Virus record (IMG/VR): IMGVR_UViG_2880395615_000010
Source of the DNA: a virus
Lineage: Duplodnaviria; Heunggongvirae; Uroviricota; Caudoviricetes
Length of the DNA stretch: 64,000 nucleotides
Reading direction: 5' to 3' (one strand)
Shown here: piece by piece, positions 27,001-30,000 of the stretch
Layout of the letters: each line of letters starts with the position of its first letter
Numbering within the stretch: position 1 is the first letter of the stretch
Made by a program: the position numbers

Positions 27001-30000
27001 CCAGCGTCCTTCAGAGTGGGCGCTGGCTTTTTTTATTATGCTGCCGGTGCATTTATCTCCAGCATCAGACTTTCTATCTCAACGCCATACGCTGCATTTT
27101 TTGTAACATCCGTCAGCGTCAGCGCATTCAGTCCCAGTGTCAGACTGTCTTTTATAACCTGGAATGCCGGGCCAGCCACTCCATTCAGTTTCGGAGTAAC
27201 CGTGGCACTGCCGGCGGTGAACACCAGCTCCAGCGTCTGCCAGTCGTTACCGTAATCGCCGAACTCCCCCAGCTTCGTGTTTCCGGCTTTCCTGTGATGC
27301 ATCAGATTCACTCTGCCGTCAGTGGTCTGAGTGAAGTACGACATCAGGAACGGATCCCCCCAGCAGCTCATCCAGAATGGCATCCACTTCAGCATCAAGA
27401 CGCGCCTCAAGATTCTGGCGGAGTTGCTGTTTCAGTGCGCTTCTGACTTCTTCAGAGCGCAGGACGTCCTTCACTGCTTCAGCAGTGACCAGAGATTTTA
27501 TTTCTGACATGGGATTTTCTCGTTGAAAGGTGTTGTTAAGAAAGTTGCTACGAAATGAGAGGCTCTTCGGGTTTTGTTCCGGCTGACTGGCTGGCGCTGA
27601 TTTTTTCCGCCGCCGCGGCATCAATCTTTTTGCGTATATAGTTCCGGATAACCTTATACCCGCCACTTACCAGATATAACGTGCACACCACCGTGCAGAA
27701 ATACAATAAAATAAGCTGTACAAATCTCATTATCCCTCCCGGTTATTGATATGGTGTTGACATCGTTAATACCTGTTGGTTAAAAAAGTGTCCTGCATGT
27801 TTTGCTTTGGATATAACGACATTTGCCGCCGGTTCTGGCTCCTTGTTTTCCCTGCCCCGGCGGCCTTTTTTTTCCTGCTTACGGGTTATTCACTTCCACT
27901 GTTATACTTTCAATCAGCACCGGATATGTCGCACCGCTAGTGATATCGGTCACGCGCAATTTGTCTGCCGTAAACGTGCCGACCGGTGACTGTGACAGCA
28001 TGAACGGCGTCCCGTCCTTACCATCAATGACCGGCGTCACCTCAATACTGTTGTTACCGGCAAAACGGAAGCCCAGCGTATGCCATTCGTTATCAAATGC
28101 GCCGAATGACCCCAGCTTCGTGTTCTGACCAGCATTTCCCTTGTAGTACATCACATTAAGGTCTGTGGCATCGCTCTGTACGTAAAACGACGCCAGCAGG
28201 TTATGACCGGCATTACCTTCCAGTGTGACGCCCTGAGGCAGTGAAGAAACCGGCCAGTACAGCGCCAGTGCGTACTGATTAGCTGTCAGTATGCCATCAA
28301 CTTTAAAACGACAACTGATAAGCCCGCCCTTCTCCAGCAGGTCTGCGCCATTACCGGCATCATGCTGCATAAACCACGAGGAACTTCCTGTCTGTTTGGT
28401 CCACCTCAGCGCCTTACCTCCTGCAGCACCTGCATCATCAACTACCAATGCACGCCCTCCTTCAGCTCCCCATCCCTGCGGATTCAGTAAACCACCTGAC
28501 TCTGTTGCACGGTAATAAAGCAGCGTTGTCACTGATTTCCCGTCCGTTGGCCACCATCCCCCGTGCCGGGCACAACCACTGGCGTGGTCACATCCCCCTC
28601 CGCGGCAATCGCCTGCATCAGGGTATAAGGGGTTATGGCCACCGGACTACCAAACGGCTGCCAGCCCTCTTTCAGTTTGTGTGTCAGCTTTTCCGCAAGC
28701 TCTGACGGCGACGCCGCCTTGACAACATCATAGTGTTTAAATGCCATGGTTCTTTCCACCATCTAAAAAATAATTCTTTAAGATACCTGACATGTAATAC
28801 ACAAAACCACACCTTAAATAAAAACCTCATCATAAAGCAGATATGCATGGATAAACTACAAGACGAGGTATAAACCACCCTGCATTTAAATAAATAATAA
28901 ACAACATCAGAAAAATAATTCTGCCCTATGGTTTACATTCAAAATTATCATTTATACTTTTCAGAACAACACCAGCAAGGCATAAACAAGGAAACTAAAT
29001 GAAGTGGATTGTGATTGATACAGTTATCCAGCCATCATGCGGAATATCTTTTTCAGTCATATGGAGTAAAATAAAATTAATAATCTGGTATCAATCGGAT
29101 GCTTTCTTACCTCCTGAAAGTATATTTACACTGACTCACACAGGTATCATGCTCAATAACAAAGTGCTACCTGTAACCATTTACAACGTAGTACCATTCA
29201 ATAAAACATTCTGGAATTTAATCAAAAACAGCCAGGAATGCCCTACAAATACAGATAACGTATTGAATGAATGCTTTAATAACCGTTGCACTCTGCAAAT
29301 ATGTCCTTATGGACTAAAACAGCAAAGTCCATAAGGAGTTTACTCACATCTGACAAAATCAATATAAACAGCCCCTCCGGAGAGGGGCTGGAGAGTGGCG
29401 CTATGTGCCATTGCATGGTGCCGGGTGCCTCCCGGTGAATTCAGTACCAGCACCTGAATCCGCGATTATCCCATATACCTACTCGCTGATTGCCCCTCCG
29501 CACAGGGGGATTCACCATGCCAGTTTCTTTTAACAAACTCCCCGCAAACCAGACAACAGTCAACCGCCTGAATTGTGAGACATTTAAAAAAAAAGCCCGC
29601 AAAAGCGAGCCAGGGAAAATAAGTGTGGCGCGTTGTACTGGATTCGAACCAGTGACCGATTGCTTAGAAGGCAATTGCTCTGTCCGGCTGAGCTAACAAC
29701 GCAGGATACAGATAATGGACCGCCTTCGGGGACCCGAACTCCGCGCAACCAGCTTCGAAAGCTGGCGCTCTTTCCTGATGAGCTAATGGCGGTATGTGAT
29801 GGTGGCCCTTGCTGGATTTGAACCAGCGACCTGGCGATTATGAGTCGCTCGCTCTCACCACTGAGCTAAAGGGCCGGGAGCAGAATAATAATGGTGCGTA
29901 ATTAATTCTGCAATCTCATCCGTTTCAAACGATTAAATCCTGAACTTCCCTGACTGTCTGCTCAAAACGTCCGGTCTCCAGCTCAACACCAATCGCACGA

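Follow-up and report, generated by a model that had tools for sequence, protein, structure and literature searches.

A prophage tRNA-Arg(UCG) gene in probable decay between two conserved tRNA genes of the ileZ-argN-argO cluster

Shiga toxin (Stx) phages such as 933W, VT2-Sakai and Stx2a_F349 carry three tRNA genes in the order CAU, UCG, UCU (by anticodon), all with an encoded CCA end, and in Stx2a_F349 and Nil3 the surrounding order is Q, tR', tRNAs, stx2AB. Here we describe a homologous trio in a viral DNA stretch of 64,000 nucleotides (nt), IMG/VR record IMGVR_UViG_2880395615_000010 (the whole stretch is hereafter called the window), whose middle gene, an argN-type tRNA-Arg(UCG), has lost parts of the canonical tRNA structure. 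The initial annotation of the window took the trio for the ileZ-argN-argO cluster, and 933W (AF125520) and Stx2a_F349 do annotate homologous genes by these names; judged by its sequence, the trio is this known cluster, here in a non-Stx lambdoid prophage. As in Stx2a_F349 and Nil3, the middle gene lies between the CAU and UCU tRNAs, downstream of a late antiterminator, and the trio likewise follows Q and a candidate tR'. Over its full 77 nt the middle gene is 89.6-90.9% identical to argN of 933W (89.6%), Min27, Lahn2 and Nil3, with the same anticodon UCG; Stx-phage argN shares with it C1-G72, U73 and A20, and the flanking ileZ and argO are nearly identical. In contrast to the Stx phages, the window prophage has no stx, has a methylase gene upstream of the trio and STnc100 and iraM downstream, and its ileZ is followed by a spacer of 7 nt instead of 1. 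The argN of Stx2a_F349 (taken as 933W-type) has A51xC63, G3-U70, U7-G66 and a normal UUCGAGU T loop, whereas the window allele has A6xA67, A52xC62 and G58. The placement in the cluster was thus right in the initial annotation, which left the minus strand unstated, and the toxin-locus setting it assumed does not apply to this prophage, which is without a Shiga-toxin locus.

tRNA pseudogenes and remnants are known from cryptic prophages, for example the tRNA fragments at the ends of E. coli K-12 prophages, and are usually truncated duplications of attachment (att) sites. With these the middle gene has in common that canonical pairs and conserved nucleotides are lost, that constraint is relaxed and that linkage lets it persist; unlike them, it is of full length, tRNA-finding programs still recognize it, and its place is within a tRNA operon, not at a prophage end. 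Other phage tRNAs counteract host nucleases: the tRNA-Thr(UGU) of the lambdoid phage 21 rescues from the P2-OLD anticodon-arm nuclease (PMC12445682), the tRNA-Lys of T5 is a rescue tRNA against PARIS (PMC11464382), and phage tRNAs evade nucleases through changes in the anticodon loop (PMC10264068). Both the rescue tRNAs and our trio belong to small tRNA clusters of enterobacterial phages, and clusters with an argN-like body include Thr(UGU). The known rescue tRNAs, however, are functional decoders changed in the anticodon arm, whereas the window allele is changed in the T arm and acceptor stem.

ARAGORN found three tRNA genes and no more in the window, each on the minus strand and at the coordinates of the initial annotation; cmscan scored them against the Rfam tRNA model (RF00005; gathering score 29 bits). 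The first is an ileZ-type tRNA-Ile2 (29875-29800, minus strand; anticodon CAU; ARAGORN tRNA-Met/Ile2 (cat); 72.5 bits), canonical and with an encoded CCA; a gene identical to it is annotated tRNA-Ile by the PGAP annotation pipeline in E. coli D1. The last is an argO-type tRNA-Arg (29702-29626, minus strand; anticodon UCU; ARAGORN (tct); 70.1 bits, no flagged pair), also canonical and with an encoded CCA. The outer genes are therefore canonical, as had been claimed; the sole pair flagged by cmscan in them is an A27xC43 mismatch atop the anticodon stem of ileZ (window 29800-29875), which is conserved in all related loci. Between them lies the argN-type tRNA-Arg (29792-29716, minus strand; anticodon UCG; ARAGORN (tcg); 42.9 bits), present as a derived allele that we call B. 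It is separated from the CCA of ileZ by 7 nt (UCACAUA; 29793..29799, minus strand) and from argO by 13 nt (29703..29715, minus strand).

The middle RNA reads CCGCCAU-UA-GCUC-AUCAGGAAA-GAGC-G-CCAGC-UUUCGAA-GCUGG-UUGCG-CGGAG-UUCGGGU-CCCCG-AAGGCGG-U-CCA, and each of the oddities reported for it could be confirmed from the sequence. It begins with C (pair C1-G72); A6 (29787) stands opposite A67 (29725) in the acceptor stem; A52 (29740) stands opposite C62 (29730) in the T stem; and in the T loop UUCGGGU (TTCGGGT in DNA) the near-universal A58, an upper-case (conserved) position of the Rfam tRNA consensus, is replaced by G58 (29734). It also has U32, the anticodon U34 C35 G36 (29758-29756), discriminator U73 and an encoded CCA. 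The other 19 of its 21 stem pairs (7+4+5+5) are standard, and U8, A14, G18, G19, A21, U33, G53, T54, psi55, C56 and C61 are all kept, so that A58 is the only conserved nucleotide lost. The identity set of E. coli tRNA-Arg comprises A20, C35 and G/U36, with a minor contribution of A/G73; the middle gene has A20, C35 and G36, and its U73 is that of all alleles of the argN family. Against the Rfam model it scores 42.9 bits (E 9.2e-06) over the full model (1-71), with two flagged pairs. This clears the gathering threshold and is far under the neighbouring genes (70-72 bits) and under intact alleles of the same gene (54-58 bits), and the E-value indicates a real tRNA homologue and no chance match. 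The initial annotation had allowed for a canonical fold in a different register; the cmscan register is the one it had used, and no alternative scored better. Scans of the whole window with cmscan, and of 20 related loci in E-value mode, showed the canonical tRNA register alone and matched this gene to no other RNA family. Replacement of the 3' half of the gene by an integrating element was also rejected, as there is no insert between the middle gene and argO.

To place the allele we compared it with about 190 related IMG/VR loci, collected with the ileZ or the argO 3' end as anchor, and with phage and genome records. At many of them the middle gene lacks none of the 21 stem pairs or the conserved nucleotides (for example CCGCCAUUAGCUCAUCAGGAAAGAGCGCCAGCCUUCGAAGCUGGUUGCGCGGGGUUCGAGUCCUCGAUGGCGGUCCA), and such intact argN alleles score 54-58 Rfam tRNA bits, the window allele being lower by about 13 bits. 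From its nearest intact relative, with which it shares an identical D arm and anticodon stem, the window allele differs by C32U, G52A, A58G, U63C and U67A. Alleles one step away also occur: G58 only (54.0 bits), G52A only (in phage Nil3; 50.4 bits) and A67 only. Since both intact alleles and single-step intermediates exist, the state seen in the window is derived and cumulative. Three of the changes break structure, so that relative to intact orthologues the gene shows the derived loss of structure by which a tRNA pseudogene is recognized. Intact alleles in E. coli lambdoid prophages (L128 1224-1300, L179 1226-1302, L090 1483-1559) occupy the same locus, have the same anticodon and are 93-94% identical, but, unlike the window allele, they have the 21 stem pairs, the A58 T loop, the 54-58 bits and a cloverleaf as the minimum free energy (MFE) structure. 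That the argN family was a genuine tRNA follows from compensatory double changes at 4:69, 7:66, 27:43 and 30:40 between its Arg-UCG branch and a Lys-UUU-like branch. The comparison also qualifies two of the oddities: C1, like U73, is common to all alleles of the family, the intact ones included, and is no defect, and a T-stem AxC, which the active Stx2 argN has too, does not prove decay on its own.

Constraint on the three genes differs. Over 95 aligned loci, nucleotide diversity (pi) is 0.010 for ileZ (the unforced 5' part), 0.059 for argO, 0.19 for the middle gene and 0.21 for the 13-nt spacer; family-wide, the middle gene is thus as diverse as the intergenic spacer. When any broken pair, lost conserved base or indel was counted as a structural lesion, the ileZ-anchored set had a lesioned middle gene at 79 of 116 loci, against 37 of 116 at the argO position; about 15 of these 37 have a tRNA-Thr at that position, and without them the count is about 22 of 101. 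For the argO-anchored set the figures were 38 of 77 for the middle gene and 6 of 77 for ileZ (71 of 77 ileZ intact). Over the about 190 loci, the lesioned share is 49-68% for the middle gene, 8% for ileZ and 19-32% for argO (nominal Fisher p about 1e-8). The damage takes many independent forms in other lineages: T loops such as GUCGAGU, CUCGGGU, CCCGGGU and GGCGGGU, this last with a poly-G tract of variable length, mismatches in the acceptor stem (…GGCAAUCCA), deletion or replacement of the anticodon arm, and argN/argO fusion. Some damaged middle genes are labelled 'tRNA-OTHER' by PGAP or not called at all, and a 'tRNA-pseudo' has been noted in the same cluster of stx2i prophages in a 2026 paper (PMC13641118).

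The argN/argO chimeras in IMG/VR (for example three loci with CCGCCAUUAGCUCAUCGGGAUAGAACGCCAGCCUUCUAAGCAAUCGG...) join the 5' half of argN to the 3' half of argO at the shared CCUUC(G/U)AAGC anticodon loop, the pattern of a deletion by recombination between the two Arg genes. Some argO copies are cut off after the anticodon loop by unrelated sequence (GCAGCUGUGGUUGCACUCC...).

The changes in the window allele also alter its predicted fold. According to RNAfold (ViennaRNA), its MFE is -29.0 kcal/mol and its cloverleaf -20.0, the alternative being 9 kcal/mol better, whereas the cloverleaf is the MFE structure of intact argN alleles. In the alternative the T arm is replaced by a hairpin U54-G58/C63-A67, stacked on acceptor pairs 1-5/68-72, and the D and anticodon arms are kept. 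Two of the three damaging changes create this shifted hairpin, because A58G and U67A turn an imperfect DNA inverted repeat of the T arm, TTCGAG-TC-CCCGAT, into a perfect one, TTCGGG-TC-CCCGAA (window 29725-29738). Among distinct alleles, G58 occurs with C63 in 16 and with U63 in 1 (nominal p = 0.004), and on several D-loop and variable-loop backgrounds; the 58:63 pair is G-C in 16 alleles, A-U in 15 and other in 18, and the helix of the hairpin is occupied to 74%. The repeat suggests that A58G and U67A may have originated by templated quasi-palindrome mutation at a hot spot in the T arm. We rejected the alternative hairpin as a conserved structure (only 58:63 covaries, a signal confounded by relatedness) and take it for a mutational footprint.

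These observations favour one of the two options of the initial annotation, a decaying pseudo-tRNA: intact sister alleles, derived breaking changes and weak constraint all point that way, while for the window allele itself we infer loss of function from comparison. We consider it likely, with moderate confidence, that the middle gene is a tRNA-Arg(UCG), hypomorphic or dead, on which selection is relaxed and which hitch-hikes between two conserved tRNA genes, so that its story is probably one of ordinary gene decay and not of a new kind of RNA. G52A, A58G and U67A would be the damaging changes, and C32U and U63C are probably harmless. G52A and U67A open two base pairs in the acceptor/T-arm helix, A58G removes the conserved T54-A58 tertiary pair, and in the predicted folds the changes make the U54-G58/C63-A67 hairpin more stable than the canonical T arm. 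The transcript would then be poorly processed, folded, charged or delivered, would probably be degraded, and would add little or no decoding of CGA/CGG. Such a gene would persist because it lies 7 and 13 nt from two tRNA genes, decoders of AUA and of AGA/AGG, on which purifying selection is strong. For CGA and CGG the host has tRNA-Arg ICG and CCG of its own, and the host tRNAs for AUA and AGA/AGG are, as is usually argued, the scarcest. The host decoders of CGA/CGG, together with the several copies of the trio in many E. coli genomes, would make the gene redundant.

Several observations weigh against decay, and most of them would fit a tRNA-Arg(UCG) that still works, helps to decode CGA/CGG while the late genes are expressed, a role commonly assumed for the cluster of Stx phages, and tolerates its mismatches, for example as protonated A+.C wobble pairs. 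The argN of the active, inducible Stx2a phages (Stx2a_F349; 933W-type) scores only 43.0 bits, equal to the window allele, with A51xC63 and two G-U pairs; the wider argN family often has A51xC63 too, which means that one T-stem AxC is tolerated or at least long-lived. A low score plus one AxC is thus no proof of death. The window allele is still a tRNA-Arg to ARAGORN and to PGAP/tRNAscan-SE, its score exceeds the Rfam gathering threshold, and its D arm with A20, its anticodon arm with C35 and G36 and its CCA are intact. Neither ileZ nor argO, both genuine, has the cloverleaf as its MFE structure, which makes MFE a weak guide and no proof of misfolding. The IMG/VR loci are non-independent samples, and the 37 loci of the B lineage vary at 6 sites of the middle gene and at 2 of each neighbour, too few to measure selection. 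The allele is common, being carried by 10% of complete E. coli genomes. A working UCG tRNA would moreover be useful to the prophage, which contains 19.2 CGA+CGG per 1000 codons against 7.7 in host core genes: CGA stands at 5.9 against 3.4 (1.7-fold) and CGG at 13.3 against 4.3 (3.2-fold). The codons of the other two tRNAs are enriched as well (AUA 8.1 against 4.9, AGA 6.5 against 1.7, AGG 5.7 against 0.9, prophage against host core genes, per 1000 codons). Codon demand was therefore rejected as a discriminator: with all five rare codons enriched, CGG strongly, it leaves unexplained why argN decays and argO does not. Against a working tRNA stand the loss of the conserved T54-A58 pair through G58, the concurrence of three lesions in the acceptor/T helix and the 9 kcal/mol advantage of the alternative fold. 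Further mutations have accumulated on the same background (B-lineage variants include C74U, G50A and G10U), and not one of the 50,697 deposited phage genomes carries the allele. We regard a functional gene as the less probable case, yet one with a real chance of being true. In the literature searched on ileZ/argN/argO and prophage tRNAs we found descriptive mentions only, and no functional, expression or charging data on argN.

The second option of the initial annotation was a specialized RNA, for example a processing or recognition element. Put more widely, the gene could be a tRNA-derived RNA with another job, in which a remodelled T arm would have been selected: a 'punctuation' mark for processing of the late transcript, or a decoy or resistant substrate against tRNA-cleaving defence nucleases. 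The T-loop changes do recur on several haplotype backgrounds, but mutation that perfects the quasi-palindrome would explain this simply. Processing of ileZ and argO (by RNase P and RNase E) needs no tRNA between them, and a role in processing or recognition received no positive support here. As for nucleases, precedents exist in the phage 21 tRNA-Thr(UGU), a neighbour gene in such clusters that rescues from P2-OLD (PMC12445682), and in evasion by anticodon-loop changes (PMC10264068); the window allele, however, has an ordinary UCG anticodon arm, so that its oddity lies outside the part of a tRNA in which changes are known to evade nucleases. We looked for a partner sequence, a repeat and a conserved alternative structure and found none. 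We think that such a role for the middle gene is improbable.

A point for another job comes from outside the window, from enterobacterial homologues that keep the acceptor, D and T arms with a hypervariable loop of 5-6 nt, which is not simple decay. Scanning one genome per species with the 5' half of argN gave 53 stretches, most of them from genera of Enterobacteriaceae, and the majority of the matches are not Arg tRNAs but tRNA-like genes of 73-74 nt. Their form is CCGCCACUAGCUCAUC[AG]GGAAGAGC-R-RCAAC-(5-6 nt)-GUUGU-AGUA-T arm-GUGGCGG-N-CCA: the acceptor, D and T arms are homologous to those of argN, and a constant 5-bp stem, RCAAC/GUUGU, closes the hypervariable loop. There are 16 loops in 17 distinct sequences, while only 13 of 68 body positions vary; a scan of IMG/VR gave 33 arm variants among 47 sequences. 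The genes occur in loci L201-L253 and L254-L319 (e.g. L203 about 7700-7773, minus strand; L208 1474-1547), usually between a CAU tRNA and Thr(UGU) and Gly(UCC) tRNAs, in prophages of many Enterobacteriaceae. ARAGORN gives them two-base anticodons, the Rfam tRNA model has no match to them at E <= 0.1 in the loci tested, and we found no description of this family in the literature searched. Integration into the hypervariable loops was considered and rejected, as the direct or inverted copies of the loops elsewhere in the loci are chance 8-mers in unrelated contexts. If functional, the family would bear on why phages carry tRNAs, for codon supply or for evasion of defence.

Taken with the rescue by the phage 21 tRNA-Thr(UGU) from P2-OLD (PMC12445682), these genes raise the idea that the middle slot may be an arms-race locus of one tRNA-derived family of nuclease-resistant rescue tRNAs or decoys, and the window allele, its T hairpin set in a new register, a selected structural variant in it. 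The putative family body is CCGCCAYUAGCUCAUC...GGCGGNCCA, and the anticodon arms set on it range from Arg-UCG and Arg-UCU through a Lys-UUU-like arm with C33 and loops of 11 nt to, above all, the hypervariable loops of 5-6 nt. Nothing in the window allele itself requires this idea, and we hold it to be improbable.

Two further variants of the middle gene were seen. In E. coli 'type C' (L002 1804-1884; L050, L086, L114, L081) the anticodon arm is replaced by GACGAC-ACGAUAACAGG-GUUGUU with a loop of 11 nt. Copies with an intact T arm carry the PGAP label 'tRNA-OTHER'; in most copies the T loop is wrecked (GGGGGCGGGUCCCC) and contains a poly-G tract whose length varies, up to about 13 G. 'Type D' (L004 378-454 minus strand, L218, L231, L009 4006-4082) is an argN relative with the anticodon loop CCUUUAA, called Lys-UUU by ARAGORN, in which C33 takes the place of the universal U33, and the L009 allele has a normal U33 loop. 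Its place is a Met(CAU)-Lys-Thr(UGU)-Gly(UCC) cluster in prophages of E. coli and Shigella; by its sequence, it could be a putative nuclease-resistant tRNA-Lys.

Only the low score would suggest that the gene resembles a tRNA by chance, stems from an error in sequencing or was read in the wrong register, and these readings we dismiss as next to impossible, given an E-value of 9.2e-06 in the canonical register, an identical sequence in 559 independent complete genomes and homology to annotated argN.

Of 5,426 complete E. coli genomes, 3,336 have a match to the trio region, with 2 places per genome as the median and 16 as the maximum. The exact window 77-mer is present in 559 of the 5,426, including O157:H7 and O145:H28 strains, and is annotated tRNA-Arg every time; in O157:H7 PV15-279 it lies in a non-Stx prophage. 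The commonest intact allele was found exactly in 146 genomes. Of the 50,697 deposited phage genomes, a collection biased towards Stx phages, none has the exact window allele (best identity 90.9%), and 261 records have an argN homologue. As a feature the middle gene is thus already known, a common and annotated allele of a known prophage tRNA. With ordinary decay most likely, the finding is of little importance for the window itself. The label 'tRNA-Arg' in hundreds of genomes means, however, that counts of rare-codon tRNAs in prophages of pathogenic E. coli probably overstate the functional CGA/CGG decoders; the AUA and AGA/AGG decoders, by contrast, are truly conserved.

The surroundings of the trio were reconstructed from Pfam matches and from the genes annotated at an E. 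coli D1 locus of 99.8% identity. On the minus strand the order is RusA, a Q-like antiterminator, a terminator-like site, a small open reading frame, a DNA methyltransferase and the three tRNAs, followed by a terminator-like hairpin, STnc100, iraM (on the opposite strand), DUF6645 and then lysis genes and terminase. The Q-like late antiterminator (31547..32110, minus strand) matches Pfam DUF1133 / Phage_antitermQ. Between it and the methylase gene, a terminator scan placed the terminator-like site (31138-31121) that is our candidate tR'; the annotated tR' of phage Nil3 likewise lies between q and the tRNAs. The DNA methyltransferase gene directly upstream of the trio (29925..30974, minus strand) was identified by Pfam N6_N4_Mtase (1.4e-44) and by PGAP at the D1 locus. 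Right after argO comes an intrinsic-terminator-like element (29584..29611, minus strand; a consensus match from the scan), a hairpin GGCUCGC-UUUU-GCGGGCU (29611-29594) with a U run. It is followed by an STnc100 small RNA homologue (29360..29549, minus strand; Rfam 132.4 bits) and by iraM (28999-29334, plus strand), annotated at the matching place in the D1 locus; no toxin genes were found at this prophage, where the trio is followed by these three elements.

At most related loci STnc100 comes after the tRNAs or, where cargo such as stx2 is inserted, after the cargo, and in L009 (2265-3380) it is present in four or five tandem copies. Just downstream of STnc100, L036 (2840-2901) and L126 (4168-4379) have AgvB (an anti-small RNA of enterohaemorrhagic E. 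coli; 96.5 bits) and a sub-threshold AsxR-like match, suggesting that the interval from the tRNAs to the lysis genes is a dense insertion zone for small RNAs and morons. Other Rfam matches in the window are a sok antitoxin (34120-34295, minus strand; 117 bits), adjoining a hokD-like gene, and DicF (39873-39924, plus strand; 77 bits). A host tRNA-Ser, present at the E. coli D1 junction, was not found at the window junction by ARAGORN. Tail-fibre and head-gene segments of one prophage type occur twice in the window (2474-3398, 47741-48650, 49758-50169 and 62675-64000), and the integrase end of the first prophage lies near 44.4 kb, so that the window seems to hold two adjacent or tandem lambdoid prophages.

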